Source of the DNA: Nitrosopumilaceae archaeon
GTDB lineage: Archaea > Thermoproteota > Nitrososphaeria > Nitrososphaerales > Nitrosopumilaceae
Assembly: GCA_965214835.1 (NCBI GenBank)
Contig: CBDCCK010000002.1
Location: 2,112,001-2,176,000, forward strand
Direction of reading: 5' to 3'
DNA length: 64,000 bases
In this document: piece by piece, positions 12,192 to 61,377 of the stretch
Numbering within the stretch: the stretch's first letter is position 1
Layout of the letters: each line of letters starts with the position of its first letter
Notes under the pieces: model-generated
Seen by the model: the letters and a program-made list of their open reading frames with translations, nothing else
Database searches by the model: none
What the model was told of the DNA's origin: nothing
Translations under genes and position numbers: made by a program

Positions 12192-12234
12192 GGAATGGCT
12201 TGCGTCCACCTTGATTTATGTGTAGGCACTCTTT

Positions 12235-13530: not shown

Positions 13531-13715
13531 TCTTTTTGAGTAAGGGTTTGCCCCTAGGCGATACTATCTGCAGATCCCTTGATCACATGGCCCCGTGCCA
13601 TGTCCTCGGGAGGGGCAGACTCGCCTTTCTGACTGATCCGCAAGAATCTCAAAATATTTGGTGGATTTGTCGTAAAAATCAGGGAGGCGAATCAACGGCA
13701 TGCGGGTGTGGCCTA

Positions 13716-14076
13716 GCTTGTTGCATAACCCTGCCTAAAATTTTGAGCTTGGCCAAAAATCACCAAGATGATCAACGGATCCTGACCGAGAGGGTAAAGG
13801 ATCATGGGAGCGGCATACATGGTACTTGGCATATACGGACAATGCGTTATACGTAGAGGGTGCAGACCTGGTCGTCGAGATCGTAATATCGGTCATAGAG
13901 CGCATGTTTGGCTAGGACGTGATGGGCCACAAGTGGTCCAACATGGTGCATGAGATAAAGTTGGGGGTGTGGATGTACAACAAGTGGGTTGTGGAGGCGG
14001 TTGGCCGTGTGGGAACCGCGCACCGGTTATGATCCGGGCGGATCGACTGGGCTCTAGTCGGGGTTGTGCAGCAGAC
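13716..14076 (+). mobile_element. internally deleted IS5-family element
   Basis: Ends GCTTGTTGCATAAC / GTTGTGCAGCAGAC flanked by TA; 5' part homologous to 18253-18380; C-terminal transposase remnant KWSNMVHEIKLGVWMYN. Confidence 0.7.
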
Positions 14077-14121
14077 TAGGAAATCGGAAAGGTAATAAAT
14101 GCCCTCTGATACGAGGTGGAT

Positions 14122-15420
14122 ATGGCAGATAAGGAGCACCTGAACTTAATCGTAACAGGTCATATTGATAATGGAAAGTCCACAACCATGGGACACTTTT
14201 TAATGGATCTCGGCGTTGTTGATGAGAGAACTATTGCAGCCCACGCCGCCGAATCCGAGAAGACCGGAAAGGGCGACACGTTCAAGTACGCCTGGGTCAT
14301 GGATAACATCAAAGATGAGAGGGAAAGGGGCATTACCATCGATCTCGCATTTCAAAAGTTCGAGACACCAAAGTACTTTTTCACGCTGATCGATGCCCCA
14401 GGCCACAGGGACTTTATCAAGAACATGATTACCGGCGCATCTGAGGCAGATGCCGCAGTCTTGGTACTATCTGCAAAGGAGGGCGAGACTGACACGGCAG
14501 TTGCAACGGGCGGGCAGGCAAGAGAGCACGCATTCCTATTAAAGACGCTGGGCGTGAACCAAATCATCGTTGCAATCAACAAGATGGATGACAGCAACTA
14601 TTCCGAGGACGCGTTCAAGGCGGCCAAGGAAAAGGGCGAAAAGCTCATCAAGTCAGTCGGCTACAAGCCTGACAACGTACCGTTCATTCCTGTCTCCGGG
14701 TGGAAGGGCGACAACCTGGTAAAAAGGTCAGAAAACATGTCGTGGTATTCCGGTAAGACACTGCTTGAGGCATTTGATGACTTTGCCGTGGCAGAAAAAC
14801 CGGTTGGAAAGCCGCTGCGCGTCCCAATCCAGGATGTCTACACCATTACCGGCGTGGGTACCGTGCCTGTGGGTAGGGTAGAGACTGGCACGATGAAGCC
14901 CAATGACAAAATCGTCGTAATGCCTTCGGGCGCAGTAGGCGAGATAAAGTCAATAGAGACACACCACACACAGCTGCCGTCTGCCTCGGCAGGCGACAAC
15001 ATCGGCTTTAACCTCCGGGGCATCGAAAAGAAGGACATCAAGAGGGGAGACGTCATGGGGAGTCCCAACGATCCGCCAAGGGTGGCAAAAGAGTTCAAGG
15101 CCCAGATTATCGTCATCCACCATCCGACGGCAATCGCGCCCGGATACACACCGGTAATGCACTGCCACACTGCGCAGGTGGCAGCGACCGTCACGGAGTT
15201 TATCTCAAAGATCAACCCGGCAACCGGCGCAACCGACGAAGAAAGCCCGAAATTCCTCAAGGTCGGAGACTCTGCAATCGTAAAGATCAGGCCGGTAAGA
15301 CCGACTCCTATTGAAACGTTCCAAGACTATCCGGAAATGGGAAGATTCGCACTCAGGGATATGGGTGCCACAATCGCAGCCGGAGTCGTCAAGGAAATCA
15401 CCGAAGAGCACAAGCCATAG
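14122..15420 (+). CDS. tuf: translation elongation factor EF-1alpha
   Basis: GHIDNGKST, DAPGHRDF, NKMD; SD GAGGTG upstream. Confidence 0.98.
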   Translation: MADKEHLNLIVTGHIDNGKSTTMGHFLMDLGVVDERTIAAHAAESEKTGKGDTFKYAWVMDNIKDERERGITIDLAFQKFETPKYFFTLIDAPGHRDFIKNMITGASEADAAVLVLSAKEGETDTAVATGGQAREHAFLLKTLGVNQIIVAINKMDDSNYSEDAFKAAKEKGEKLIKSVGYKPDNVPFIPVSGWKGDNLVKRSENMSWYSGKTLLEAFDDFAVAEKPVGKPLRVPIQDVYTITGVGTVPVGRVETGTMKPNDKIVVMPSGAVGEIKSIETHHTQLPSASAGDNIGFNLRGIEKKDIKRGDVMGSPNDPPRVAKEFKAQIIVIHHPTAIAPGYTPVMHCHTAQVAATVTEFISKINPATGATDEESPKFLKVGDSAIVKIRPVRPTPIETFQDYPEMGRFALRDMGATIAAGVVKEITEEHKP

Positions 15421-15430
15421 GTCGGGTTAG

Positions 15431-15739
15431 TTGACTCAGTCTGCCCGTATCAAACTCTCAAGCACCAGCCTCCCTAGGCTAGACGGGGTATGCGGCGAGA
15501 TTATGGGTATAGGCAAAAAGACCGGCGTCCGGGTAAAGGGGCCGACCCCGCTTCCTGTCAAGAGGCGGCACGTTGCTACAAGAAAATCCCCCTGCGGCAA
15601 CGGCACCGAGACCTACGAAAAGTGGGAGATGAGGATGCATAGGAGAATTATTGACATTAACGCAGATGACAAGGCAATCAGACAGCTGATGAGGCTAAAG
15701 ATACCAGATGACGTCTATATTGAGCTGTCGCTGACATAG
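15431..15739 (+). CDS. rps10: 30S ribosomal protein S10 (uS10)
   Basis: GPTPLP, RKSPCGNGTETYEKWEMRMHRR; directly follows tuf. Confidence 0.96.
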   Translation: MTQSARIKLSSTSLPRLDGVCGEIMGIGKKTGVRVKGPTPLPVKRRHVATRKSPCGNGTETYEKWEMRMHRRIIDINADDKAIRQLMRLKIPDDVYIELSLT

Positions 15740-15749
15740 GGGTTGTAAA

Positions 15750-15953
15750 ATGTCCAAAGACTCCCCTGAAGCTACCGAGGGCCTAGAGGCCGCACAGGCA
15801 GAAATATTTGACGTCGTCTACTCCTGCCTGAGGTGCGGGACAAACGTGTCCAATACAGATCTGAGCAGGCTACCTGAAATCAAGTGCATCTGTGGATTCA
15901 GGGTGTTTACCAAGGTCAGACCCCCTGTTGTAAAGTCCGTCAAGGCAGTGTAG
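15750..15953 (+). CDS. rpoP: RNA polymerase subunit P (Rpo12)
   Basis: YSCLRCG ... IKCICGFRVFTKVRPP zinc ribbon. Confidence 0.85.
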   Translation: MSKDSPEATEGLEAAQAEIFDVVYSCLRCGTNVSNTDLSRLPEIKCICGFRVFTKVRPPVVKSVKAV

Positions 15954-15955
15954 AA

Positions 15956-16153
15956 CTATCTGTCCTTTTTGTAGCTGTGCTCCCTTTGCAGGTGCGCCCT
16001 CATATCCTCCATGCTTGAGAAGTTTTTGGCACACTCCTTGCAGTCATACGGGCTGTCCTTAAAGTGGACCGCTTGCTTGTGATGCATCAGCTCCTCCTGC
16101 CGTGAGAACCCTGACGCGCACAAGCCACACCGGTGTTTTTTGAAGAGGCCCAT
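15956..16153 (-). CDS. double C2H2 zinc-finger protein
   Basis: Two CxxC-12-HxxxxH fingers. Confidence 0.85.
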   Translation of the reverse strand: MGLFKKHRCGLCASGFSRQEELMHHKQAVHFKDSPYDCKECAKNFSSMEDMRAHLQREHSYKKDR

Positions 16154-16156
16154 TCC

Positions 16157-16567
16157 CTATCCGTACTTTGCCTTTTGCTCGTCCCAGCACCTTCTGCAGA
16201 GCTGGCCTTCGATCTTCCACTTTGGCTTGGGGTTGTACCGTATCAGCCCCATCTTGCCGCTGCATATTGTGCAAAAGTTCCTTTTCTCGTTGAATCCTGA
16301 CTCTTTTTTATCAAAACACTCCTTGCAGAGTAGCCCATCCATGTCCCACTGCCACCTTGGCTCCCACATGTCTGAGATCTTCTTGGTGGTGCCGCAGACA
16401 ATACAGGGCTGCCTGACCTTGGCCTCGTAGAACTCGTTTGACTTGTCCATGTGGCAGTCCCCGCAGAGCCTTCCATTGATGTTCCACTCCCGCTTGGGCT
16501 TGTGCTTGTGAGTGAGCTCCTTGCTGCATACTGCGCAATATTCCACCTTTTTGCCAAACAGGCCCAT
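16157..16567 (-). CDS. multi-CxxC zinc-finger protein (three repeats)
   Basis: Three C..C ... P..W...G.LC..C modules; start MGLFGKK. Confidence 0.8.
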   Translation of the reverse strand: MGLFGKKVEYCAVCSKELTHKHKPKREWNINGRLCGDCHMDKSNEFYEAKVRQPCIVCGTTKKISDMWEPRWQWDMDGLLCKECFDKKESGFNEKRNFCTICSGKMGLIRYNPKPKWKIEGQLCRRCWDEQKAKYG

Positions 16568-16629
16568 GATATCACTGGCTGGTATTTGATTAAAAATGAT
16601 TCGAGGCAAAAACGGGCGGGATTTGGCGA

Positions 16630-16755
16630 CTAGGATTCGTCAAGAATCTTCTCGATTGCCTGGCTTGCGTTTAGCATGCCGTGCTCCCTTGCAAATTCCT
16701 CGATGATCCTGTACTGCTCGGTTGTAAAGCAGATCGGCATTGAGCGCTTGTCCAT
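16630..16755 (-). CDS. small ribbon-helix-helix (CopG-like) protein, 41 aa, below ORF-track cutoff
   Basis: MDKRSMPICFTTEQYRIIEEFAREHGMLNASQAIEKILDES; TATA-like TTAAATA upstream. Confidence 0.6.
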   Translation of the reverse strand: MDKRSMPICFTTEQYRIIEEFAREHGMLNASQAIEKILDES

Positions 16756-16808
16756 GATGGTAGCAGGGGCTGTTATTTAATATGCCTTCCGATGCTCGTA
16801 GCCTGTTG

Positions 16809-16950
16809 AACACATGATAAAAACGCCCCCGCCGTAGCCAGGGTGATGGATCAACCCCTCGTTATGCATGTGCTTCGCGCACTACCTGTTGAATGGGGAT
16901 ATCCGAGCTGCTGTGTTCCTGTGCTACGCGCACTGATGGATGAATGCAGC
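16809..16950 (+). ncRNA. predicted IS110 bridge RNA (copy 1); transcript ends unknown
   Basis: Two structurally parallel stem/internal-loop/hairpin units; loop 1 matches the target flanks, loop 2 matches the circle junction. Confidence 0.8.
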
Positions 16951-16995
16951 TTCTGATCTGTCAAACCATATCCGAAAGGAGGTGAAAGAAAAGGA

Positions 16996-18073
16996 TTGAG
17001 AAGCATAGGAATAGACATTGGAAAGAGAAAATGCGCAGTGTGCGTCATCGACGCCAAGGGACACGTGCTAGAGGAGGGCTCGTATAACAACACGTACAAG
17101 GAGGCATCAAAGCTTGCTGCACGACTGAAAAAAGAGTACAAAAAGTGCCAGGCCGCGTGCGAGTCAACGGGCAACATGTGGCTAAAGACGTTCAGGGCGT
17201 TTGAGGATCAGCATATCCCCATACTGCTTGCAAACACCCTCAAGATGAAGATAGTATCAGAGACCAGCGCAAAGACCGACCCGATAGACGCAAGGAAGAT
17301 AGCCGACACGCTCAGGGCCGGAATGATACCACGATGCTACGTGGCATCAGCAGAGCTGAGGGATGTCAGGGAGCTGATGAGGTACAGGATACGGATGGTA
17401 CAGGAGAGGACCGCAGTCATAAACGGGCTGCACAGCTTGGCTTGACAAGTACGACATAGCCATAGATGCATCCACGATGTACTCCAAGAAGGCCATACGG
17501 AAGATCTCCGATACCAGGCTGAACATGCCAAACGATGACAGGATACTGGCAAGCTGCACTAGGAGGATTGCATCAGTTACAGAGGAGATAGACCAAGCAG
17601 GGGAGGACATAGGAAGACAGGCAGGATCGAACGAGGATGCCAAGCTGCTGTTGAGCATGACGGGAATAGACACCTTTGCAGCAATGCTGCTGATAGCAGA
17701 GATCGGCGACATAACCAGATTTCCATCGCCGAACCAGCTTGTGTCCTGGGCCGGCATGTGTCCCCGGGTGTACCAGTCGGGGGATCGCGAGTACTACGGC
17801 CACATGAAAAAGGATGCAAACCGCAGGATCAACTGGCTGATGATCCAGATAGTCAACGTCGCCGTACAGCACGACGACAGGATGAAAGAGTTCTACGAGA
17901 GGGTCCGCAAAAGGAACGGCAACAACCACGTCATAGCGATAACGCATGTTGCAAACAAGATGCTCAGGATAATCTGGCACATGCTGACGACAAAGACTGC
18001 GTATTCATCGCGCAATGCTGTCCTGTACGACAAGAAGATCAAGAGGGTGACAGAACTGGCGGGAACGGCATAG
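16996..18073 (+). pseudogene. IS110 DEDD recombinase, 1-bp frameshift at ~17440
   Basis: GIDIGK, CESTG, KTDPIDA (DEDD); GMCPRVYQSG C-terminal domain; SD GGAGGTG. Confidence 0.92.
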
Positions 18074-18254
18074 GATTACCACCTTCCTCCCCCACCCACC
18101 CACCCAATGATCCGCCCGCACCCTGGCAGGTGCGACAGGACTGGCTCGTGCGTATTGCTAGCGTTAGCTATAAAGCACGGCCCGGCCGACTAGGCACGGA
18201 TCAGAAGACGAAAGGAACGTCGCCATGTTACTGGCGGGCGTTTTACCATGGATG

Positions 18255-18640
18255 CATAACTCTGCCTAAAATTTGAAACTTGACCAAAAATCACCCAAAT
18301 TATCAACGGATCCTGACCGAAAAAGTAATGGAATATGAGGATGCCACGTATGGTACTTGACACACACGGACAATGCCAAGTACGGAGGGGGGTAGGCCTA
18401 GTAGTCAAGTACGATCCAGGCTGGGAGAATGATCTCAAGAATGCCAACTGCCACAAGGAGGGTGCCCCGTTCCTGTACGCAGATGGCATGATAATGGTCG
18501 CGGCGGCCCTCAGAACCGCATTCATGATGCCGTACAGGCAGCTGTCAGGCATGATCAGGGAAATGCTAAGGGGCATGGACTCGTCGTGCTATGCCACGAT
18601 ATTTGGGAGGATGCAAAAGCTTGACGTCGACATTGCATAG
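18255..18640 (+). pseudogene. IS5-family element left end and transposase N-terminal remnant
   Basis: KEGAPFLYADG..PYRQLSG..YATIFGRMQKL; end homologous to 13716. Confidence 0.75.
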
Positions 18641-18699
18641 TCAACACATAAAAAAAACGGATTGTTTTGACAACTATTTTTGATCCAAAGATCTAAGAC

Positions 18700-19100
18700 T
18701 AGGGGAGCCATACATATGTGCATCAAAGCGCAAGCAGAACGAGTTCAAGGAGGCAGCGCAAAAGCTGATCAGGGAAAATACGGCACAAGGGTATACGGTA
18801 CTGGCAGAAGACGAGTCCTCCGTGCAGAAGACCTCGAACAGCCCCAAGCGTGGGTGGACAAAGCGCGGCATGAGCGTCACGGTGCCCTCGTCCCTGTCAC
18901 GGCCGCGCCGGTACATGTTTGGCGTACTGTCAGCTAGTAGACTTTATGCGTAATCGGTTCAGATCTAGGATTATTAGGAACAAATTCATCTCATTCAGGT
19001 CGATTACGCATAAAGTCTAGTGTATTCTACTTTATGTTCTATGACAAGACCAGCACCGACAGCTTTTGCGACTTTTTTGGCAAATGCACACAAGGTCTGA
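18700..19100 (+). pseudogene. IS630-family transposase fragment interrupted by a MITE
   Basis: TVLAEDES..RGW..YMFGVLSAS|VFYFMFYDKT..F; frame is restored when the MITE plus one AGT is removed. Confidence 0.7.
18939..19018. mobile_element. 80-bp MITE (family D)
   Basis: Perfect 18-bp TIR AGACTTTATGCGTAATCG, 3-bp TSD AGT; solo ends at 21018 and 25610-25625. Confidence 0.88.
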
Positions 19101-19228
19101 TCTACAAGCTTGGCGGTCATTTTACAGGAAGTTTTTTTGGATAGCCCCGGCTGATTTCTGGAAAAATTCCGGATAATGCAAGCTATACTTTTCTGACTGC
19201 AAAGATTTTACGTGGGCAGATCCCAGTC

Positions 19229-19741
19229 ATGCACATGAAAAAGCGCCAGATTGTAGTCATCGGGCACAACGACAACGGCTGTACGCCCGAGCACGAGAGG
19301 ATTGCATATGATACCGGTGTCGAGGTTGCAAAATCCGGCTCGGTCCTAGTTACCGGAGGCCTGGGAGGAGTGATGCGCGCCTCCTGCCATGGTGCATCTG
19401 ATGCAGGGGGCATAACCGTGGGCATACTGCCCCAGGATGATCCCGGCTTTGCCAACGAGTACTGCCAGATTGTAATACCAAGCGGCATGGGGCTGACCCG
19501 GGACTTTCTCAACGCGCTTTCGGCAGACGGCATCATAATCATCGGCGGCGGCTCTGGAACCCTCTCTGAGGTGTGTGCCGCGTACATGCACAAAAAGCCG
19601 ATGGTCGCAATCAGAAACACCGGCGGAACCGCCGACAGGTATGCTGACAGCTATGTCGATCACCGGCAGAATGTGAAGATCATAGGTGTGAGTACGCCAA
19701 AGGAGGCAGTGGAAAAAATCCTGGAACTGATCACTTCATAG
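19229..19741 (+). CDS. TIGR00725 / LOG-like Rossmann-fold protein
   Basis: VTGGLGGVM, VGILP, GGGSGTLSE. Confidence 0.88.
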   Translation: MHMKKRQIVVIGHNDNGCTPEHERIAYDTGVEVAKSGSVLVTGGLGGVMRASCHGASDAGGITVGILPQDDPGFANEYCQIVIPSGMGLTRDFLNALSADGIIIIGGGSGTLSEVCAAYMHKKPMVAIRNTGGTADRYADSYVDHRQNVKIIGVSTPKEAVEKILELITS

Positions 19742-20867
19742 ACTCTAGTAGCGGATCCGGCCTGTAGAACTCGCCGCCTTCCTGTGCAAGCCTGTCCAGC
19801 TCTGCAACGATTCTGCCCATCCCGATCTCCCTTGCCGTCTCAAACAGCGGCCTCTTGAGGCCCAGCCCCAGCCTTGCGGCCATTTCGAGCTCCTCAATGT
19901 CGCTTGCCTTGTTTGTGACCAGCCATGCTGCATTGTTGAGAACATTTGCCACCAGCGGGATGGGGTCGAACTTTCCTGCCAGCTCCTCTGAGAGCCCCAC
20001 CCTCTCATACTTGTCATCAGAGTACCTGTAGAACCCCTCGCCTGATTTCTGGCCCAGCCTCCCATCTTCGAACATCTTCCCGATTGTAGGATGCGGCAGG
20101 ACAACCTTCTTGTCCCTGAGATGCATCTCGGTAGTCGCCTTGTGGATGACGTCCATGCCGGTAAAGTCTGCCAGCTCAAAAACCCCCATCGGGAACCCCA
20201 TCTTGAACTTTACCGCAGAGTCAATCTCCTCCAGGGAGGCGCCCGTCCTGTCCATTGCATAGCATGCCTCGTGGACCATGGGGATAAACAGCCTGTTGAT
20301 TATGAATCCGGGAACGTCCCGCCTGCACAGGACTCCTTGCTTCCCTACGGACTCTACGTACTCCCTTGTCAGCCTGAGCGTCTCCTGGGAGGTCTTTTGG
20401 CCCGGGATGATCTCGACTAGCTTCATCAACTGCGGAGGATTGAAAAAGTGGATTCCGATGAATTTGTCCGGGCGCGAGATCGACTCTGCAATCTCGGTAA
20501 TCGGCAGCGTGCTTGTGTTTGATGCAAAGATCACCCCTTCATCGGATGCCTCGTCTAGCTCCGCATAGACCTTTTTTTTCAGATCCATGATTTCAGGAAC
20601 CACCTCGATTACCATCTCTGTGTCCCTGACTGCCTCCTTGAGATCCACGACCGGCGTTATTCTTCCAAATATTGCGTCTGCCTCGTCCTTTGGGATTTTT
20701 TCCTTTGAGACCATCTTGTCTAGGCTCCACCTGATCTTCTCCATCGCCTTATCCAGGAACTCCTGCCGGATGTCCCGCAGTACCACGTCGTATCCTGCAG
20801 CAGCTGAGACCTGCGCTATTCCGTGTCCCATGACCCCCGAGCCTAGAACCGTGATGCTCTTTACCAT
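19731..20867 (-). CDS. 3-hydroxyacyl-CoA (3-hydroxybutyryl-CoA) dehydrogenase
   Basis: GSGVMGHGIA, ASNTSTL, GIHFFNP, PGFIINR, GFPMG. Confidence 0.93.
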   Translation of the reverse strand: MVKSITVLGSGVMGHGIAQVSAAAGYDVVLRDIRQEFLDKAMEKIRWSLDKMVSKEKIPKDEADAIFGRITPVVDLKEAVRDTEMVIEVVPEIMDLKKKVYAELDEASDEGVIFASNTSTLPITEIAESISRPDKFIGIHFFNPPQLMKLVEIIPGQKTSQETLRLTREYVESVGKQGVLCRRDVPGFIINRLFIPMVHEACYAMDRTGASLEEIDSAVKFKMGFPMGVFELADFTGMDVIHKATTEMHLRDKKVVLPHPTIGKMFEDGRLGQKSGEGFYRYSDDKYERVGLSEELAGKFDPIPLVANVLNNAAWLVTNKASDIEELEMAARLGLGLKRPLFETAREIGMGRIVAELDRLAQEGGEFYRPDPLLESMK

Positions 20868-21164
20868 AAGTGAGGGATCCTGCCATCCCTTATTATCCTA
20901 TTTGACCGGCGATCCTTGACGTGTTGTCTGAAAACCATGTTCGTTAGTAACTGATGTCCGTCTACATACATTTTGGATCACTTTTTCTGACTGCTTTTGT
21001 GAACAGGCTAGGACACTAGACCTTATGCGTAATCGGTTAAAATCAAAAAAGTCAGGCAGCTTTTACGTCATTTTTGACAAATACACAAAGTATGATGGTA
21101 TCAGAAGGCGGTTGATCCGTTTGCATTCTTGCCAGTTTGACCCAGCTAGGATGCATTTTGCTTG

Positions 21165-21254
21165 TACGAGGCCACCTCTCATTGAGCAAATAGGCGTGAA
21201 TTCGCATGCTGCTGTGATTTTCATGCCTAGCCAGCAATGGGACGTGACCACGTA
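21165..21254. mobile_element. ~90-bp MITE family A (TA-bounded)
   Basis: Ends TACGAGGCCAC / GTGACCACGTA; homologous to 23210, 42741, 48648, 53450. Confidence 0.8.
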
Positions 21255-21336
21255 TGCTGTCCCGTCCGGTTCCTATCCTATAAGCAACCACGTTTAATCC
21301 GCATGGTTTTTAACGGATTTTCAAGCCTAGCTTGGC

Positions 21337-21501
21337 ATGGGGCTGTTTGGACGCAAAAAGGACGACAAGAATACAAAGTGCAAGGAATGTGGGCTGGATC
21401 TGCCCACCCCCGAAAGGCTTGAAAGGCACATGAAAAAGGCACACGGAAACATTCCTGAGAAAAAGTTTGATCCAAACCGTGCCGGGGATGGTACCTGGTA
21501 A
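21337..21501 (+). CDS. small C2H2 zinc-finger protein, 54 aa, below ORF-track cutoff
   Basis: MGLFGRKK...CKECGLDLPTPERLERHMKKAH; stop overlaps next ATG (TAATG). Confidence 0.8.
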   Translation: MGLFGRKKDDKNTKCKECGLDLPTPERLERHMKKAHGNIPEKKFDPNRAGDGTW

Positions 21502-21779
21502 TGGATGAGCTAAGCGACGGGAAAAAACACACCCTGATCTTCGGGGGCGCCCTGGTCATTGCGGGCCTAGTTATAGCAACCGTGGTGTTTCCCTTCTGGA
21601 ACCTGATACGCGAGGATGTCTTTGAGGAGGCCGAGATTCTAAAAAACGACGGGGGGATCTGCTATGTGGAGACCTCCGACAAGATCCCAAAGACCATTGA
21701 GGACTGTACCCACATGCCCGGAGACATCGTGGTGGTAAAATACGGCCGGGGACTCGCATGGGCGACCATCGAGCCCTGA
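21501..21779 (+). CDS. hypothetical membrane-anchored protein
   Basis: One TM helix; coupled to upstream ORF. Confidence 0.7.
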   Translation: MDELSDGKKHTLIFGGALVIAGLVIATVVFPFWNLIREDVFEEAEILKNDGGICYVETSDKIPKTIEDCTHMPGDIVVVKYGRGLAWATIEP

Positions 21780-21811
21780 ATGCTTAATACCGGACGGCCC
21801 GATCCACCGTC

Positions 21812-22219
21812 ATGGACTGCATATTTTGCAGGATTGCAGGCGGCAAGATTCCTGCAAGGATACTGTACGAATCCAACAGCGTTATGGCGTTTTTGGACGC
21901 GTTTCCACTGGCAAGGGGGCACTCCCTTGTAATTCCCAGGCGGCATTTTGAGAGGATCCAGGACATGCCTCCTGATGTAAGCTCTGCAGTCTTTGAAGTC
22001 GTCCGCAGGTTGGCATCCGGGGTTGATGCCGTTGCCGGCTCCACGCTGGTCGCTGTCCATAACGGACGGGGAAGCGGCCAGGAGGTTCCTCACGTCCACG
22101 TACACCTGATTCCCAGGGGACCTGATGATGGTGCAGGCACGGTGCACACCATGTTCAAAAACAGCGTCGAGCTAGATGACTCTGACCTTGCCTGCATCCA
22201 GGATGCCCTGAGGCTCTAG
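21812..22219 (+). CDS. HIT family hydrolase
   Basis: DCIFC, GHSLVIP, HVHVH. Confidence 0.95.
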   Translation: MDCIFCRIAGGKIPARILYESNSVMAFLDAFPLARGHSLVIPRRHFERIQDMPPDVSSAVFEVVRRLASGVDAVAGSTLVAVHNGRGSGQEVPHVHVHLIPRGPDDGAGTVHTMFKNSVELDDSDLACIQDALRL

Positions 22220-22881
22220 TGCGGGTATAGACGTTCCCTGGTGTCGCTGTTTTTGACGTTTATGGCTCTGGTCGGGCATGTCTCTGCTGCATTCATGATC
22301 TTGTTGATGCCCGCGCCCCGTCTGTTGATTACCCTGGATTTCGGGTTGGTTTGGGACTTTTTATCGATGTGAAAGACCTCTGGCGCGATGATCTCGCAGC
22401 TGCAGCACCCTATGCACAGGCTGGGATCCACGTCCACCAGCAGATCCGGCTGCTCCTTGGGCTCCTTTGTCTTGTCAAACTCCCCGTTTTGCCCGTCTGC
22501 ATTTACGGTCCTGTCGTACTCATCCCAGAACTTTCTTTCGTATTCTTTCCACCACTCGGGGTCTCCCTCCTCGAACCCCCGTGTGAACTTGCCCCAGTCC
22601 TGCTCCGGGGGATCCCCTCTTGGCGGTGCACCCCACGGTGACTGCGGCTTTGGCCTCCGGCGCGTCTTTTCTGTAGCGGTCGCCTTTTTTCCATTTTTAT
22701 GAAAGTCCTTTAGGACGTTGTAGGCCTCGGTGACCCTCTTGAACTTCATGCCGTCCTTTGACTCCTTGTTTTTATCCGGATGTGACTCTAGGGCCAGCCT
22801 CCTGTATGCGTCTCTGATTTCATCTAGGGTCGCGTCGCTTTGCAGCTGCAACGTCTGGTATGCCTGACTCGTGTTCACCAC
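22216..22881 (-). CDS. DnaJ-ferredoxin fusion (DnaJ-Fer)
   Basis: J-domain HPD plus CIGCCSC...CP ferredoxin. Confidence 0.92.
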   Translation of the reverse strand: MVNTSQAYQTLQLQSDATLDEIRDAYRRLALESHPDKNKESKDGMKFKRVTEAYNVLKDFHKNGKKATATEKTRRRPKPQSPWGAPPRGDPPEQDWGKFTRGFEEGDPEWWKEYERKFWDEYDRTVNADGQNGEFDKTKEPKEQPDLLVDVDPSLCIGCCSCEIIAPEVFHIDKKSQTNPKSRVINRRGAGINKIMNAAETCPTRAINVKNSDTRERLYPH

Positions 22882-23103
22882 CTTTCCAGTCTTCTTACTG
22901 TTTTAAAAACAATGTCTATTCTACGACCTCCTTGCCCTCGACTATCCACGCCAGCTTGACTATGCATAGAAGCCTTGTCTCTGGCCACCGTAAGGCACAC
23001 AAGGCGGCACCTAGTGCCTTCTATCCTACCGTTCTTGCCGTCATGTAGGACTCGGCCGTGCTGGTGCCCGGCCTCCTGTGTCATACCTTGTGGGTCATCT
23101 TCG

Positions 23104-23200
23104 GTAAGAGCTTGCACGCTCCAAAAGACACAGCGTGATGGGCAGGTGATCAAGGGTTTTGTCTTGGCATCAAAAACTATTGGGCTGCTCACCTCCATAG
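23104..23200. mobile_element. degenerate IS66-derived MITE
   Basis: Starts GTAAGAG; internal GGTGATCAAGG like 49179 and 58260; right end eroded. Confidence 0.45.
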
Positions 23201-23209
23201 ATCTAGCTG

Positions 23210-23298
23210 TACGAGGTCACCTACCCCACAAATCAGGCACGAATTGGCATGTACAATTGTGATTTCCATGCCTAGCCAGCAAGGGACGTGACCACATA
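23210..23298. mobile_element. MITE family A
   Basis: TACGAGGTCAC ... GTGACCACATA. Confidence 0.82.
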
Positions 23299-23322
23299 CA
23301 TCTAGCTGATCAGAAAAACCAC

Positions 23323-23409
23323 ACAACATCAGATCCTCAACTCTCTAGGCGTAAAACATTCATCCAAATTTCCTGTTCACGCCTGATTTTACGGATGATC
23401 TGACGTTGT
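23323..23409. mobile_element. putative MITE
   Basis: TIR ACAACATCAGATC / GATCTGACGTTGT (12/13). Confidence 0.55.
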
Positions 23410-23476
23410 ACAATCATTATAAGATACTAGCCTTCTGCGTCCTCAAACCCCCCAATACCGCCTATTGACAGCCTTT

Positions 23477-23935
23477 TCATTTTATGATGCCTGTCGCTCT
23501 GCCCTTGAAGTCAGACTCATACCATGTCGTCTTGTACTCTGCGTTTTTTCTAGGCGGGATGTTGACTGCAATGTGCGCAAAGGTCTTCCGGGTGCTCGTA
23601 GAGCCATGCGTGTGCAGCTGCCTTGCGGGGATGTATGCTGTGTCTCCTTTTTTTAGCGAGATTTTCTGCGTCCTTTTGATGCCAAAGCTGTCATTTTTAC
23701 CCCCATGCCTTTTGAACAGCTCCAGGCTACCTGGGCCCTCTGTTACAATGAGAACTTGGCCACCGTTGTGCCAGTGAAGCTTGGTCCTTGAACCCTTTTC
23801 AAAGTAAACGTGGTACATCTTATGCTCGGTGATTTTCAGCGCCTCTCCGATATCCCTCATGCGTGTCTTTGCAGTAAACCAGTCCGGATTGATTCTTCTC
23901 TGACTTCCTCCTGCGTAAATATTGATTTTGTCCAT
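23477..23935 (-). CDS. cupin domain protein
   Basis: HWHNGGQVLIVTEG and IPARQLHTHG cupin motifs. Confidence 0.9.
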   Translation of the reverse strand: MDKINIYAGGSQRRINPDWFTAKTRMRDIGEALKITEHKMYHVYFEKGSRTKLHWHNGGQVLIVTEGPGSLELFKRHGGKNDSFGIKRTQKISLKKGDTAYIPARQLHTHGSTSTRKTFAHIAVNIPPRKNAEYKTTWYESDFKGRATGIIK

Positions 23936-24121
23936 AATCTAAGCACATGCATGTATGTGATATACTTAGCTATATACTCGGTTTTCCCATCTATGTTAAA
24001 ACGCCCGGGCCCTTTAGCGGTGGCAAGCTGTGTCTCTCTGATCCACGCCTAGTTTGATATGGGCCGCCTTATGGCTTACGCTGGGTACAGGGGTCTGTTC
24101 CCCGTGTGGGAATGGTGCGCA

Positions 24122-25253
24122 TTACTTTGCTGTCTTCTTCCCAGCCTCGGATGGCGGCTCGGATGCTGCTGCAGTAGTAACAGCGGCAGTAGCAGCAGCC
24201 TCTGCCCTGTCCATCTTGAGGCCGTACGTCCTGGGATCGTGTCCGGAGTATGGCGTCTTTGTCACGAGCATGGACCAGATGATCCTGATCATCTTGGTTG
24301 CCACGTACGTCCTGGCCACCATGGACCTTGCGCTGCTCCTCTTCTTGGATCCTGCATGGATCCTTCCCATCCTCTCGTCGTATATGGCAGCCGTCCGCGC
24401 AGCCTGAAGCATCGCCCGGTTGCACCTGTGGTTGGATGTCTTTCTCATCTTGCCGCAGTACTCCCTGTCGCCGGACTGGTGGACGGTCGGACACATGCCG
24501 AACCACGCAACAAGCTTGCCCGGGGTCTTGAATCTGCCAGTATCTCCGATCTCGGAGACCAGCAGCATGGCCGCGAGTCGATCCCCGGAATGCTCATCGG
24601 GATCCTCGCATCCTCGCTGGCGCCGGCCTGTGCGGCTATCTTCGTCTCGATGTCTGCAATCTCCTCCGTGGGCTGCCTGACCCTTCTGGTATGCGCGCCA
24701 AGAACCGCCCCGTCGTTGGGATCATCAGGTGCCATGTCTGTCAGCTGCCTGAGTCCCTTGTCGGAGTACGCGTGTGACGAGTCGATCCTCTCGTAATACC
24801 TGTCCGGGAGGCCGTGGATCCGGTTGATCACGGCCGTCCTAGCCTGCACGGGGCCGATCCTGCAGCGCATCAGCTCCATGACGCTCCAGAGTCCGGGCGG
24901 TGCCACGTAGCACTTGGGAACCATTCCGGCCCTCAGGGCGTTTGTGAGCCTTCTTGCGTCGATTGGATCAGTCTTTACGTCAATGTCCGAGATTATCCGC
25001 ATCCTGTAGGTGTTGGCAAGCTTGACGGGTATTCCTGCGGACTAGAATGCCTCGTAGGTCTTGAGCCACATGTTGCCTGCGGACTCGCAGACGGCCTGGC
25101 AGTTCCTTCCGTAATTGAGCCTTGTCTTCCTGGCAAACAGGCCCGCCCTCCTTGGAGGTGTTCTCGTATGCCGTCTCTTCTTGGATCCTCTTTTTGTCGT
25201 CCATAATGCACGCTATGCGTTTTCTCTTTCCAATGTCTATTCCTATGCTGCAT
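24122..25253 (-). pseudogene. IS110 recombinase, multiple frameshifts/stops
   Basis: SIGIDIGK, KTDPIDA, GMCPTVHQSGD distributed over several frames. Confidence 0.9.
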
Positions 25254-25291
25254 TACATCTTTTCTCGTCTTCCTTTTTTTGTGGTTCAGAG

Positions 25292-25437
25292 GCTGCACAC
25301 GTCCATCAGCACGCCGTGGTGCACGAACACTGCAGCTCGGAATTACCGCATTCAGAAGTCAGCGCGCGGGGTGCATGGGAAGACAGCGGTTGATCCACGT
25401 CACCACTGCTACGGGCCCGGGCGTTTTAACCCGTGTT
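25292..25437 (-). ncRNA. predicted IS110 bridge RNA (copy 2) with a different target guide
   Basis: Same scaffold as copy 1; guides GTCTTCCCA and ACTTCTG match own flanks and the host MITE TIR. Confidence 0.75.
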
Positions 25438-25439
25438 CA

Positions 25440-25549
25440 AAAGTTCCCCACAAGACGGCTGCAAACTCGAAACGGTTCAAGCAAGGCTGCCTACAGATCC
25501 GCACACATCCATCTGCACCGCCACGAGTCAGTTACTTCTGGGAGGACTG
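25440..25549. mobile_element. MITE family C, copy 2 (remaining part of its left TIR at 23979-23989)
   Basis: Right end ACTTCTGGGAGGACTG; internal CTACAGATCCGCA and CCACGAGTCA. Confidence 0.7.
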
Positions 25550-26051
25550 TAGCTTGGTCTGATCAACGCATCTGCGTTTGGAAAACCTTGCGGAATTTTT
25601 AACCACGGTCGATTACGCAAAGTCTACTTTTCACTTAGCTGACTATAGCGTAGCACGCAGCACGGCTATGCCAGCTCCCACCATTAGGACATCCACGGCA
25701 CTTTCCATCATTTTGTCTACTGTGACTTGATTTAAGGTGTAACTCTTGCCGTTTTTCTGTTGTATGATCAAACGAAAGCGGTTCCGGAATTGGTGGGATC
25801 ATGCGACAGGCAAGCACGTACTAGACTTTTGCAGATGTAATTCGTGCCTAAAATCGTAAATCACCCAAGCCCGATCTGCTGCTGATGTGTGATACCACGC
25901 CTCCTTGGTAGCCATGCATGAAAATCAGTTCCATGCAGCTCGTACCTGGTTGCTAGGTGGAATGAGGCCTAGTGCATTTTGGTTAGGAAATTTAGCATTT
26001 TGTCTAAACAAGCAAAGCTGATCCCTATAAGATCACTTTTCACTTAAAACT

Positions 26052-26225
26052 ATGTCCTTCCAAGAACGGCAGCAGATGAGGAGTATAGACGAGCTAATCC
26101 TCCGGGCCACCCCAGAGGAACTCAAGAAAATCCAGGAGCTAGACGTCTCTACCCAGCTTGACGGCAGGTCGTTTTATGATACGTGTGTAGAGTCAAGGGA
26201 ATCCCCACTTGCCAGATCCAAATAG
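26052..26225 (+). CDS. small hypothetical protein, 57 aa, below ORF-track cutoff
   Basis: MSFQERQQMRSIDELILRATPEELKKIQELD...; TATA-like TATAA about 25 bp upstream. Confidence 0.55.
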   Translation: MSFQERQQMRSIDELILRATPEELKKIQELDVSTQLDGRSFYDTCVESRESPLARSK

Positions 26226-26265
26226 CCATTCTTAGTTTAAATGAGGGAATTTCAGCTTCTTGCAT

Positions 26266-27327
26266 ATGTCTGCCACAAAGGCCGTCAAAAAGACTGCCAA
26301 AAAGACGGCAAAAGGCACCGCCAAAAAGACGGCTTCAAAAAGAGTATCCAAGAAGACCAGAGTCGTCTGCATCTCCCACAAGGAGGATGCAGACGGAATC
26401 AGCTCAGCGGCGCTGATCCGCCAGGCGTTTGGTGGCGACTCTATCCTAGTTGACTATCCGGGACAGATGGATGCCATAGAGCAGGTATCTGGAGATGAGA
26501 GGCTAAAGGCACTGTACATCTGTGATCTGGGCCTCAGCAAAAAGAACCAGGACAGGTTCGTCGAGATCATGGCCGGACTTCGCAAGAGGCGCGTTGCAGT
26601 CACATACATTGACCACCATGACATTGATCCTGCAATCGCCAAGCAGCTAGGTGAGATCAAGGTCAGGATGATCCACGACACCGGCGAGTGCACCGCAGTT
26701 CAGGTGTACGACTCGTACAAGTCAAAGCTGAACGAGCACGCCTCGTTTGTTGCAGCCTGTGCCGCAATTACCGACTACATGGAGGACAGGCCAGTTGGCG
26801 CTAGGTTGCTGCAGGTATATGACAGGCAGTTTGCCTTGATCAACGCCACCGTCCTCACATACAACATCGTGGGGCATCAAAAGGACGAGGACTATCTGAT
26901 GTACCTGGTGGGGGAGCTGGCCGACTCTAAATACCCGCACCAGATTCCAAACTCCTTTGAGTTTGCACAAGTCCAGGTGGAGAGACTGGCAGAGGTCATC
27001 GCCAAGGTCAAAAAGGGGATGAAGAGGATGTCGAACCTGGGCCACATGGAGATTCTGGATGCCGGGGCAAGTGGCGCCGTAAACTTTGTGCTCGGCCTGT
27101 CCGGCAAGGACGTCGGGGTCGCCTACAAGGAAAGGGTTGATCACGGAATCTATGCCGTCTCTGTGCGCGGCTCCAAAGGCTGCAGGATCCACCTTGGAAA
27201 GATCGTCAATGTCCTGGCTGCCGATCTGGGTGGCTCCGGCGGCGGCCACGACAGGGCCTGCGGCGCAGTCATCCCAAAGCCCAAAATCAAGACATTCCTG
27301 AGGGAGTTTAACAAAAAGCTGGGATAG
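26266..27327 (+). CDS. DHH/DHHA1 phosphoesterase (RecJ-like) with K/A/T-rich N-terminal tail
   Basis: DADG, ICDLG, IDHH, GGGHDRACG. Confidence 0.9.
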   Translation: MSATKAVKKTAKKTAKGTAKKTASKRVSKKTRVVCISHKEDADGISSAALIRQAFGGDSILVDYPGQMDAIEQVSGDERLKALYICDLGLSKKNQDRFVEIMAGLRKRRVAVTYIDHHDIDPAIAKQLGEIKVRMIHDTGECTAVQVYDSYKSKLNEHASFVAACAAITDYMEDRPVGARLLQVYDRQFALINATVLTYNIVGHQKDEDYLMYLVGELADSKYPHQIPNSFEFAQVQVERLAEVIAKVKKGMKRMSNLGHMEILDAGASGAVNFVLGLSGKDVGVAYKERVDHGIYAVSVRGSKGCRIHLGKIVNVLAADLGGSGGGHDRACGAVIPKPKIKTFLREFNKKLG

Positions 27328-27396
27328 GTGCACTTAATCTGGGGCGCTTTTTTGTTCGGGACTGCAACTGACGCATCGTATGGGGTTTATGCCCTT

Positions 27397-27495
27397 GGAC
27401 AGGCATGCGCTAACCTGCGTGCAAATGTAATCATATTTGGGATTAAAAGTGGGATCAGAGGAATTGCAGGACAGGCATGCGCTAACCTGCGTGCA
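27397..27495. repeat. two perfect 27-bp direct repeats, 45-bp spacer
   Basis: GGACAGGCATGCGCTAACCTGCGTGCA at 27397 and 27469. Confidence 0.9.
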
Positions 27496-27578
27496 GCTGC
27501 AATCTTTATGTCTGGTCAGTAGGGATGTGGCCTCATACTTGGATAGGCTCTTACCTACAGGCCACGAATAGTCTGTTG

Positions 27579-27718
27579 AGTACATGATAAAAACACCCCA
27601 CTGTAGTCAGGGTGCTGGATCAGCCCCCACCATGCACGTGCTTCGCGCACTATCTGTTGAATGGGGCAGTCAGAGCTGCTGTGTTACTGTGCTTTACGTA
27701 CTGGTAGATGACTGCAGC
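27579..27718 (+). ncRNA. predicted bridge RNA of the mini-IS110
   Basis: Both loops and closing stems retained; TCTGTTG and TAGATG match its own flank and junction. Confidence 0.65.
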
Positions 27719-27947
27719 TTTTGGTACATCAAGACTAGGCGGAAAGAAACCGTCTGCGATGACTCGCCTCCTGTCCCACCACCCATCCAATGATCTGGGA
27801 GGATATGACATGACCGCACTGGGACAAGGCAGGTGCTATTGCATCGTGCAGCCAGCTAGCTGTAAAGTGGGTCACGATCAAGTAGGCATGGATCAGAGGA
27901 AACTAGGAGCATCGTCGTTTCTGCGATGGGTGTTTTTAACATAGATG
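27579..27947 (+). mobile_element. non-autonomous mini-IS110 (both non-coding ends, no recombinase)
   Basis: Collinear with the 5' and 3' non-coding regions of copy 1; TG core at both ends; sub-terminal IR ATGATAAAAACACCC / GGGTGTTTTTAACAT. Confidence 0.9.
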
Positions 27948-28029
27948 CATAACCATGATTTTAGGCACAAAAGATCAGTCACCTTTGCGTGTTCAGGCAC
28001 GGCTATGCAACAAGCGTAAGGTGCGAGAT

Positions 28030-28670
28030 CATGCCTCCACTATGAATCGATAAACGTTGATGCCTGTACCTGTAAGCGCACGTACGATATTCCGGTATGC
28101 ATACCTGCCAATACGGATATACAAGTAGGCGGGTCGGACGACATGACGGTTCGGCCGCAGGTACCAGTAGAGCCCCCGACTCCGGTTCTGCAGCCTGAGC
28201 CCGAGCCGGAACCAGAACCTGAACCCGAGCCACAGGTGCCTGTCGAGCCCCAGACCTCGGTACAACCGGATCCTAGGCCCCATGCCGCCTCGGAACCGGG
28301 AGGCACATGCCTGATAGCGACTGCCGCATACGGGATCAAGCTGGCGCCGCAGGTGCAGGCACTCGGAGATACGCGACAGTGCACTGCTCTCGACGGGCTC
28401 GGGCGCCTCCTTTGTTGCTGGATTCAACTCCATATACTATTCGTTCTCGTCGGCAGTAGCCGGCCTGGAGAGCCAGAACCCGGCATTTCGCGAGGCCGTA
28501 AGGGTGCTTGTGACCTCAATGATATCGACGCTGTCGATAATGTCGCTTGCTGAGGAGGGCTCAGATGCATCGGTACTGGCGCTGGGAGCCTCAGTTTGCC
28601 CTCAATATCGGCATGTGTGTAGCAGTGCCTGCAGCCGCCATCGTGGCTGTCCGGCGGCTGCGGGACTAAA
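28030..28670 (+). pseudogene. CFI-box-CTERM surface protein remnant with PE linker
   Basis: (PE)n then GGTCLIATAAYG..LAPQVQ; after a frameshift IRD...GFNSIYYSFS...NPAFREAV; boundaries approximate. Confidence 0.75.
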
Positions 28671-28963
28671 GTCTGCCGATCACCGAACGGTATGGGTGCA
28701 TTGCATCCTCTGCAAAGAAAAACAATGCATAAAGAGAATCGTTTTGCACTATTTTGATGCCTTGTGCTAGAAGATGGCTTGCTAGAGCCTCCAATACAAT
28801 CCTCCCACGTCTGTACCACATTCAAAACGGTGATGCCTAAAAAAACATCCAGACTGCGTTTTTGCATCGCCACTAGGCGGATGCTCCTGGCACCTTTCAG
28901 AGAAATCTGACCGGGCCCAGACATGTGCCGTTTTGGCAGCGCAGCTCCCTGCCCGGATCGCGT

Positions 28964-29416
28964 TTATTCTACCTCGACTATGGCATCAATCTCTGTCATT
29001 GAATCAAGCGGCAGGCTGGCAACCCCCACTGCGATTCTGGAGTGCCTTGCGGCCTCCCCGAACACATCAAACAGGAGGTCCGATGCTGCGTTGATCACCT
29101 TTGGATGCTGGCAAAACTCCGGATCCGAGTTTACAAACCCCGAAATCCTGACTATCTGTCTTACTTTGTCTAGGCTTCCAAGGTTTGCCTTTAGCTGGGA
29201 CAGGATGTTTATGGCGCAAATCCTTGCAGACCTTCTTGCATCCTCGATATTCTCATCGGTGACCTTTCCTGCAAATGCAACTCTTCCGTCCTGTAGCGGT
29301 ATCTGTCCTGACAAAAACACCAGATTCCCGACCCTGACGGCCGGAACGTAAGAGCCTGCAGGCGCGGGAGGGACAGGCAGTACAATTCCCAGCTCTGATA
29401 TCTTTTTCTCATACAT
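28964..29416 (-). CDS. RidA/YjgF family protein
   Basis: GSYVP, LSGQIP, HSRIAVGVASLP. Confidence 0.92.
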   Translation of the reverse strand: MYEKKISELGIVLPVPPAPAGSYVPAVRVGNLVFLSGQIPLQDGRVAFAGKVTDENIEDARRSARICAINILSQLKANLGSLDKVRQIVRISGFVNSDPEFCQHPKVINAASDLLFDVFGEAARHSRIAVGVASLPLDSMTEIDAIVEVE

Positions 29417-61094: not shown

Positions 61095-61340
61095 GTGAGT
61101 GATCCTGTTACCGTAAGCGAAGGGGGCGTAAACCTCAAGCCCAATCTAATGGAAAAAGAGAGGCTCTATCACTGCTTTTTCCGTGATAGGCTAATGCTGT
61201 TCTTCAAAGATGCTCAGGACTTCCTTAACTGCTACGAGATTGAGGAGAGGGATCTTGTAGAGAACGCTCGGGGCGCCTCAGACGGTGACATTGAAAAAAT
61301 TTTTGAAGAGTATATTAGAACCCAAGACCTTAATAATTAA
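61095..61340 (+). CDS. hypothetical protein
   Basis: In-frame GTG start; ORF-track frame 61026. Confidence 0.6.
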   Translation: MSDPVTVSEGGVNLKPNLMEKERLYHCFFRDRLMLFFKDAQDFLNCYEIEERDLVENARGASDGDIEKIFEEYIRTQDLNN

Positions 61341-61377
61341 ATAAAAGCAAATCAAGTTTTTGTAGCGACGATGCAAA

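Follow-up and report, generated by a model that had tools for sequence, protein, structure and literature searches.

IS4321 and IS5075, insertion sequences (ISs) of the IS1111 group, reportedly target the 38-bp terminal inverted repeats (TIRs) of Tn21-family transposons (Partridge and Hall 2003). A comparable habit is described here for DEDD ISs of a Nitrosopumilaceae archaeon, which has a 3.22-Mb genome (G000) with a second contig of 13 kb. The window, meaning the whole 64,000-nucleotide stretch that was analyzed (G000:C2:2112001-2176000), contains three of these elements, called copy 1, copy 2, and the mini, and all three lie 8 to 9 nt inside the TIR of another transposon. Like IS4321/IS5075, the elements are DEDD ISs placed site and orientation specifically inside the TIR of another transposon; subterminal inverted repeats, in a gapped form, can be read in copy 1. 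IS4321/IS5075, however, are one bacterial element pair with one TIR family, whereas the archaeal elements use at least five TIR families within a single genome; moreover, unlike in IS4321/IS5075, the joint here is at the extreme tip of the TIR (7 to 9 nt) and the putative gene for the guide RNA lies upstream of that for the transposase. We conclude that these are very probably DEDD ISs guided by bridge RNAs or seekRNAs, with target loops programmed for the terminal 13 to 14 nt of the inverted repeats of other transposons.

Two described RNA-guided systems are relevant, and comparisons with the papers cited here and below refer to portions of their texts. IS621 has a two-loop bridge RNA, encoded upstream of the recombinase gene, with an overlap at the core dinucleotide, and targets repetitive extragenic palindromic (REP) sequences (Durrant et al. 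2024, PMC11208160). In the IS1111 elements ISEc11, ISKpn4, ISPst6, and ISPa11, the seekRNA is downstream of the transposase gene (tnp) and the complement of the top strand comes first; close relatives are naturally reprogrammed, and the targets are often repeats such as attC and REP (Siddiquee et al. 2024, PMC11187229). The same paper names ISMtsp17, ISHvo10, and ISAcp5 as rare exceptions with upstream or double noncoding regions. TIR targeting is thus already known from IS4321/IS5075, as is natural guide reprogramming from the seekRNA elements (PMC11187229). Titles and the first lines of abstracts in the literature searched mention neither clade-wide TIR targeting across several families nor miniature derivatives with bridge RNAs, and TIR targets may be among those tabulated in the supplements to PMC11208160 and PMC11187229.

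Element boundaries were fixed by BLAST of the region and of its ends, and empty sites were reconstructed by joining both flanks of each copy and comparing the product with the genome. The junctions of copy 1 read ...TA-GCCTGTTG/AACACATG...CCATGGATG/CATAAC..., where slashes mark the joints. The unoccupied counterpart, GCTTGTTGCATAAC, is the left tip of a 361-bp IS5-type element elsewhere in the window, of which positions 13722 to 13860 align with positions 18253 to 18391 at 78%. Over 406 nt, the sequence to the right of copy 1 shares 86% identity with an intact copy of the IS5 family, and it is cut at approximately 18640 by the start of another repeat. The left flank of the mini is TA-GTCTGTTG; its right flank, CATAACC..., leads to a second TIR at 28002 to 28015. 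Copy 2, with a protein match at about 24206 to 25249 on the minus strand (tblastn), lies between ...GGGGAACTTTTG (inner half, ACTTTTG) and GGAAAACCG and splits the tip of an abundant MITE (miniature inverted-repeat transposable element) of approximately 90 to 120 bp. A first-pass annotation had proposed that copy 1 split an IS5 TIR with an empty site at 13716, that the mini split the TIR of an IS5-type MITE, and that copy 2 split a MITE TIR; all three proposals held, as did all the coordinates. Contig pieces from four sequencing runs that were compared with the region contained no joints, and hence neither an empty site nor a circle junction; the pieces were short, as repeats would give. Loose ends of these pieces at 16804 and 18254 coincide with the boundaries of copy 1, and one piece leaves at 16859 into the guide sequence of sublineage A2 (see below), observations that carry no weight beyond consistency.

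Related elements were sought genome-wide with the open reading frames (ORFs) of the window as tblastn queries, which returned 11 loci with 84 to 100% identity to the N-terminal half (lineage A), a family B at 47 to 60% identity, and more families at about 30%. All 11 full-length lineage-A copies have the form xxGT-TG/AACACATG...CCATGGA-TG/flank, with TG at both junctions and a constant relation between junction and flank, and TAG(C/A/T)CTGTTG on the left with CATAAC on the right is found in 8 of the 11. For nine copies, the reconstructed empty site matched 7 to 24 uninterrupted loci each, which are intact termini of transposable elements, and the other two occupy TIR-like half-sites. Insertion mostly into sequence outside transposable elements, which the first-pass annotation had named as the outcome adverse to its proposal, was therefore not what was found. 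Empty-site matches begin about 10 nt to the left of the joint and extend rightward, with unique sequence farther left, so that the host repeat starts 8 nt (plus TA) ahead of the site of insertion. Wherever a case was resolved, the joint lay 7 to 9 nt from the outer end of the repeat, and the recognized 13- to 14-mer is therefore exactly the terminal portion of the TIR. An empty-site search that demanded 15 nt on the left missed such sites, which have just 7 to 9 nt of TIR there; a lower threshold recovered those of a further family, family C.

Repeats (at least 50 bp and at least 80% identity) take up 34.8% of the genome (24.5% within the window), and several MITE families have 50 to 150 copies apiece. 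Because repeats are so abundant, adjacency to a repeat is unremarkable by itself, and the weight of the argument falls on the constant offset together with the match to a guide. Chance adjacency in a repeat-rich genome was rejected on the basis of offset, orientation, and guide match. Insertion of TIR-bearing elements beside resident DEDD elements was rejected as well, because the TIR is divided and 8 nt of it stand apart from the rest.

A two-loop guide RNA is predicted at the left end of copy 1. In the putative target loop, GTTATGCA (16861 to 16868) is the complement of the top-strand sequence TGCATAAC, and CCTGTTG (16885 to 16891) equals the left target. In the putative donor loop, TGTGTTC (16912 to 16918) complements the GAACACA of the left end, and ATGGATGA (16936 to 16943) is identical to the right end followed by the initial base of the left end. 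Left ends, when aligned, were conserved throughout save for two pairs of short segments, which correspond to the loop strands, and the guide columns were the least conserved. RNAalifold predicted a closing stem holding two arms, each composed of an outer stem, an internal loop, and a hairpin. Across 12 sequences and 36 pairs of this fold, 95.1% of pair cells were standard, compared with 30 to 51% when partners were slid by 1 to 3 columns, and 6 of the 36 pairs had changed on both sides. Relatives in a genome of the same genus (G004) add a further compensatory event, with hairpins GGGC/GCCC instead of GTGC/GCAC. The donor loop changes in step with the right end: ATGGATG accompanies ...CATGGATG in full copies and ATAGATG accompanies ...CATAGATG in three minis. 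An Rfam scan of 13000 to 29000 at an E value of ≤1 gave no matches, and thus no curated bridge-RNA family, and no guide matches were seen in the 181-nt noncoding region downstream of the transposase gene (18074 to 18254). A 12-nt segment in the 3′ part of the RNA closing stem (16950 to 16961) is 92% complementary to the right noncoding end at 18196 to 18207, which might be an alternative pairing in a transcript across the circle junction.

The guides differ between sublineages in step with the sequences that they would specify. Lineage A has 80 to 100% nucleotide identity in the RNA scaffold and at least three different guide pairs. The eight full copies of sublineage A1 carry TGCATAACG (reverse complement of the right target guide [RTG]) and ACCTGTTGA (left target guide [LTG]), which specify CCTGT-TG-CATAAC, the IS5-type tip. 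Their right flanks fall into four contexts that have only the 14-nt tip in common, namely, both ends of a 1.3- to 1.4-kb IS and both ends of an approximately 76-bp MITE; the ORF of the IS5-type host scored 166.7 bits against the NCBIfam IS5 model NF033579 (cutoff, 140). The three full copies of sublineage A2, 85 to 92% identical to A1 in nucleotides and including the sole intact ORF of the lineage, carry TGAAAATGA and CGTAGTTGA. These guides specify GTAGT-TG-AAAATG and match CAGTAGTTG^AAAATG (caret, joint) in the tip CAGTAGTTGAAAATGTACC of a 1,364-bp ISH3-like IS, the ORF of which resembles ISH3/IS4 transposases at 111 bits against NF033541, below the cutoff of 225. One A2 copy is in a perfect site and one in a diverged ISH3-like tip; in the third, the left flank is an ISH3-like half and the right flank a different MITE.

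Families B and C repeat the pattern at other TIRs. Family-B guides are TGGGAAGAC and GACTTCTGA, or GTCTTCCCA and GACTTCTGA in copy 2, and specify ACTTCTG^GGAAGAC, a half-site of which is present at four of five family-B left junctions. The corresponding MITE tip, ACTTCTGGGAAGAC, has 172 genome matches at ≤2 mismatches, 57 of them perfect 14-mers, and nearly all are followed by TG and then by unrelated sequence. In family C (about 30% protein identity), all three full copies are 7 nt inside tips of the type GTAYGWG^GTCACC, which has 308 genome matches at ≤3 mismatches, and the three empty sites have 7, 22, and 15 uninterrupted matches. GTATGAG was considered as the left end of family C and rejected, as it is the outer 7 nt of this abundant tip. 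One guide base in family C covaries with the flank between two copies, GTAACCT with AGGTTAC and GTAAACT with AGTTTAC. A 128-bp MITE, with 156 TIR ends and 53 copies of 125 to 130 bp in the genome, shares GTTG at the joint with the IS5-type and ISH3-like TIR families. The earlier suggestion that one lineage tracks at least two unrelated TIR families through different guides is thus upheld and extended: lineage A is associated with the IS5-type, ISH3-like, and 128-bp MITE families, and families B and C add a fourth and a fifth.

Site matches were then set against occupancy. The 13-mer CCTGTTGCATAAC is expected 0.1 times in the genome under a uniform model; it occurs unoccupied four times, always at a TIR tip, and six more instances are split by full-length copies. 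Six of the eight full A1 copies are in such perfect 13-mers, and two are in one-mismatch sites. Unoccupied A1 sites comprise 4 perfect, 26 one-mismatch, and 89 two-mismatch sequences, preceded by AG, as TIR tips are, in 4, 22, and 27 cases, respectively. One could suppose that there is no targeting at all and that the arrangement reflects dense nesting of repeats, DEDD elements hitchhiking in mobile hosts, or recombination between repeats. Such a view would draw on the repeat content of the genome, on junctions whose left and right flanks come from different TIR families, on three A1 copies in nearly identical MITE hosts, and on other ISs that have inserted into DEDD elements in turn. It does not account for the constant offset in each TIR family, the fixed orientation, the fit of the flanks to the resident guide at 0 to 1 mismatch in all eight full A1 copies, the four A1 host contexts with nothing but a 14-nt TIR in common, or the covariation of guide and flank, seen in genome G004 as well as in families A, B, and C, and we give it hardly any credence.

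Several observations nevertheless weigh against RNA-guided homing. Two A2 copies (1302401 and 1519223) have 4 mismatches to the resident guide, a family-B copy (2665847) has 7, and two minis (639987 and 3124524) have an IS5-type left half with a different MITE on the right; these off-guide or chimeric junctions suggest later recombination between copies or half-matched events. The nearly identical MITE hosts could partly mean comobilization or duplication rather than independent insertions, and no more than four separate host contexts can be counted for A1 with certainty. The compensatory changes in the RNA mostly trace to the single split between A and B, such that the covariation represents few events, and the RNA and its activity are predictions in this organism. 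The same +1 frameshift is present in the transposase gene of 10 of 11 lineage-A copies, and both full family-B copies are broken. Boundaries and empty sites were sought without success for families D and E (approximately 30% identity to lineage A), the elements of which abut repeats. We conclude that there is good in silico support for guided homing to TIR tips.

One way in which the insertions could arise is as follows. The element would excise to form a circle, one loop of the left-end RNA would pair with the joined ends (ATGGA-TG-AACACA), and the other loop would pair with a TIR tip (for copy 1, CCTGT-TG-CATAAC). Strand exchange by the recombinase at the common TG would then place the element 7 to 9 nt inside the TIR, in a single orientation and without target duplication, and changes in the guides would have retargeted sublineages to different TIR families. 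The junctions, the empty sites, the matches of guides to target and donor, the conserved fold of the RNA, and the pattern across the genome are shown in silico; expression of the RNA, the recombination chemistry, and the reason for the preference are what we infer. TIR tips are probably favored as the most abundant and conserved short sequences, harmless to the cell and carried along with the host transposons. Because the tip is the sole part common to an IS, its decayed copies, and its MITEs, tips would provide identical, harmless sites in the greatest number, and they are also held constant by the host transposon's own needs. Abundance and neutrality would likewise cover the REP, attC, and Tn21-TIR targets of bacterial relatives, to the extent that those are described in the sources used here.

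A split TIR probably leaves that end of the host element crippled, as a side effect. The first-pass annotation had gone further and suggested that insertion immobilizes the target element, which could amount to an anti-transposon function. In a selected form of this idea, guided insertion into TIR tips would benefit the cell or the element community by immobilizing other transposons, with guides diversifying after active families. Consistent with such disarming, every resolved target is a TIR tip, 7 to 9 nt from the end, where an insertion would part the cleavage site from the inner transposase-binding region; perfect-match IS5-type tips are mostly taken (6 occupied and 4 empty); and guides for at least five TIR families coexist in one genome. 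Overall occupancy, however, is low, with approximately 14 lineage-A junctions that have an IS5-type left half versus 53 unoccupied IS5-type tips, one A2 copy in a perfect site versus 23 perfect ISH3-like sites that are unoccupied, and, for family B, 57 perfect sites without an insertion. Moreover, many hosts are short MITEs or remnants rather than autonomous copies, more than a third of the genome still consists of repeats, and site abundance with neutrality accounts for the same pattern, as in the relatives that are described as targeting REP, attC, or Tn21 TIRs. Selected disarming is therefore quite improbable, and the occupancy figures speak against the function that had been proposed.

The elements have the traits of the IS110 family in the broad sense, including DEDD domains, a core TG at both junctions, no target duplication, and site- and orientation-specific insertion; an RNA with one loop for the target and one for the joined ends is predicted from sequence matches and a conserved fold. 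The long noncoding region upstream of tnp is that of the IS110 group. The guide order of that group (LTG and left donor guide 5′ of RTG and right donor guide) is not found, since GTTATGCA precedes CCTGTTG and TGTGTTC precedes ATGGATGA. Two traits of the IS1111 group are also absent: the seekRNA position downstream of tnp, as the guide RNA is predicted upstream, and extensions of 7 bp on the left and 3 bp on the right, as the elements have about 8 to 9 nt on each side, AACACATGA... and ...CATGGATG. Subterminal repeats are 11 to 13 bp in the IS1111 group and absent or short and imperfect in the IS110 group. In copy 1, a gapped subterminal inverted repeat of about 14 nt was read by eye, with TAAAAACGCCCCCGCC close to the left end and its counterpart GGCGGGCGTTTTAC close to the right; a finder of ungapped inverted repeats did not list it.

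As far as the two RNA-guided systems are described in the cited portions, the elements resemble IS621 in an upstream noncoding RNA with one loop for the target and one for the joined ends and in the targeting of repeated sequences, but unlike in IS621, the strand order is reversed in both loops and the core is TG rather than CT (PMC11208160). The protein likeness to IS621 is remote (PDB 8wt6, E value of 9e-9, C-terminal part only). They resemble the seekRNA elements in guide order and repeat targets and, in the gapped form read in copy 1, in subterminal repeats, and they differ in the upstream position of the RNA gene and in extensions of about 8 to 9 nt on both sides instead of 7 and 3 bp (PMC11187229). 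We conclude that the element, to judge from its predicted RNA, is a hybrid of two described architectures, with the RNA gene upstream and an IS1111-like guide order. It may belong with the exceptions ISMtsp17, ISHvo10, and ISAcp5, as these are described in PMC11187229. The comparison with IS4321/IS5075 drawn in the first-pass annotation was apt; the elements are IS1111-like in guide order and, to judge from the gapped repeats of copy 1, in subterminal repeats.

The transposase gene of copy 1 is divided into two half-frames that overlap at 17423 to 17445, with an extra G within AGCTTGGCTTGAC (17434 to 17446). The sole lineage-A copy without the extra G, G000:C2:513383-514516, encodes one 378-amino-acid ORF with both DEDD domains that matches NF033542 at 234 bits (cutoff, 140). 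The frameshift site, GCT-TGA-C (17440 to 17446 in copy 1), has a stop in the zero frame, and the ratio of nonsynonymous to synonymous substitution rates (dN/dS) was 0.2 to 0.3 in both halves between frameshift-bearing copies that are 8 to 15% apart in nucleotides. These data point away from dead copies and suggest that the +1 frameshift is programmed or that the split protein works. The nearest plasmid-borne matches are haloarchaeal genes annotated "IS110 family transposase," at 31 to 35% identity.

About nine minis contain the first approximately 160 nt of the element without the transposase gene, and four of them are complete at about 370 bp. In the complete minis, the left and right ends are joined by one common internal deletion, and both ends and the predicted two-loop RNA are kept. 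The right end is ...CATAGATG instead of the ...CATGGATG of full copies, and in three minis the donor loop (ATAGATG) fits the mini's own right end. Three minis have target guides found in no full-length copy; two of these carry TGTCGCGTA, in one case paired with GAGGTTGA, and the third carries a related variant. These divergent guides approximate GGGGTTG^TCGCCTA, the tip of the 125- to 130-bp MITE, with imperfect matches because the minis are old. The minis look like self-guided nonautonomous elements that would need only a recombinase in trans. A precedent of a kind is MITEPpu9, the ssr9 module of ISPpu9, a nonautonomous IS110-family derivative flanked by IS ends with a transposase thought to be supplied in trans (PMC12288879). 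The minis are likewise nonautonomous IS110-family derivatives between IS ends; by the account in that source, however, MITEPpu9 carries the small RNA gene ssr9 rather than a bridge RNA, whereas the minis keep a complete predicted two-loop guide RNA and, unlike MITEPpu9, some have guides found in no full-length copy (PMC12288879).

With the intact protein as the query, related elements were found in 7 of 30 other genomes. G004 (49% identity) has four copies with the same RNA scaffold, one of which differs in the left guide and the left flank together, and nine uninterrupted sites in that genome are termini of a repeat beginning GTAAGTGTTTACGTCGTG^CCTAG. In G010 (same family, 60% identity), the flanks make a small palindromic repeat. 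A broader proposition, that a clade of archaeal bridge-RNA elements consists of TIR-tip parasites with spacer-like turnover of guides, that guide-carrying minis borrow the recombinase, and that other transposons are measurably restrained, is on this evidence rather unlikely. RNA-guided DEDD recombinases are under development as genome-writing tools, and their natural target choices are only partly cataloged; related RNA scaffolds with several guide pairs and many occupied and unoccupied sites per cell form a compact natural experiment, from which rules on tolerated mismatches and on retargeting could be drawn. The habit of homing to the ends of transposons is not confined to IS4321/IS5075 and can be clade-wide, in archaea, and for genome ecology the elements exemplify transposons that have other transposons as their niche.

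Table 1. Positions of the DEDD elements, their predicted RNAs and host transposons (window numbering unless stated otherwise)
Feature	Position	Strand	Remarks
IS5-type nonautonomous element, 361 bp	13716..14076		Both TIR tips intact; TA on both sides (13714-15, 14077-78)
Unoccupied target GCTTGTTGCATAAC	13716-13729		Left tip of the 361-bp IS5-type element, TA before; right TIR at 14063-14076
IS5-type TIR split by copy 1, outer 8 nt (GCCTGTTG)	16801..16808	+	TA at 16799-16800; core TG at 16807-16808
Copy 1, DEDD insertion sequence, lineage A1	16809..18254	+	1,446 bp (one core TG counted)
Predicted bridge/seek RNA gene of copy 1, two loops	16809..16975	+	Upstream of ORF starting at 16996
Transposase, N-terminal half	16996..17445	+	PF01548 DEDD_Tnp_IS110, E 1.1e-29; ends at TGA
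Transposase, C-terminal half	17423..18073	+	+1 frame; PF02371 Transposase_20, E 5.7e-25; first ATG at 17477
Inner part of host split by copy 1	18255..18640	+	Rest of TIR (CATAAC...) and about 390 bp of IS5-family IS left end
Outer 9 nt (GGAAAACCG) of MITE TIR split by copy 2	23979..23987	-	
Copy 2, family B DEDD element	23988..25437	-	Several frameshifts; ~65% nucleotide identity to copy 1
Predicted bridge RNA of copy 2	25437-25277	-	
MITE split by copy 2	25438..25549	-	Body plus inner half of the TIR (ACTTTTG, 25444-25438); other TIR at 25534-25549
Outer 8 nt (GTCTGTTG) of IS5-type MITE TIR split by the mini	27571..27578	+	TA at 27569-27570
Protein-less mini, 369 bp	27579..27947	+	Left end with complete but decayed predicted bridge RNA, and right end; no transposase gene
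Remainder of ~76-bp IS5-type MITE	27948..28015	+	CATAACC... to second TIR GCTATGCAACAAGC at 28002-28015
Complete minis	Window 27579-27947; G000:C2 639991-640362, 2955616-2955986, 3124154-3124520		About five truncated copies in addition

Further arrangements of these elements were noted elsewhere in the genome (G000:C2 numbering). Chimeric junctions at 1517777 to 1519227, 639987 to 640362, and 3124154 to 3124524 have the outer half of an IS5-type or ISH3-like TIR on the left and the inner part of the 128-bp MITE TIR (TCGCCTAATTC...) on the right, an arrangement suggesting either that copies in different hosts have recombined or that insertion or excision was half-matched. Nesting is also reciprocal: IS5-type elements lie in the left ends of DEDD elements of lineage A and family C (approximately 477323 to 477398, 639950 to 639990, and 1909315 to 1909345), each directly after a conserved GTAG(C/T)C motif of the putative RNA gene, and an ISH3-like IS at 2329749 to 2331112 interrupts a family-B copy. 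In a family-B left-end fragment (approximately 1751780 to 1751871), the DNA of the left target guide (GACTTCTG) continues into GAAAGACTG, the outer part of the specified MITE tip, and it looks as if the guide's own DNA has recombined with the target. A solo 64-bp lineage-A right end (662072 to 662135) adjoins the extreme tip (TG-TCTTATACGGAAATTA...) of an approximately 1,047-bp repeat family, which may be a sixth targeted TIR type.

Genes for an EF-1-alpha-type GTPase (14116 to 15420) and a class V fructose-1,6-bisphosphatase (11055 to 12209), both archaeal markers, are found close to the elements. Repeats of 30 nt and 21 nt, arranged in tandem at 61411 to 61665 of the window, lie inside a minus-strand ORF (61278 to 61889) for a low-complexity repeat protein and are unrelated to the insertions.

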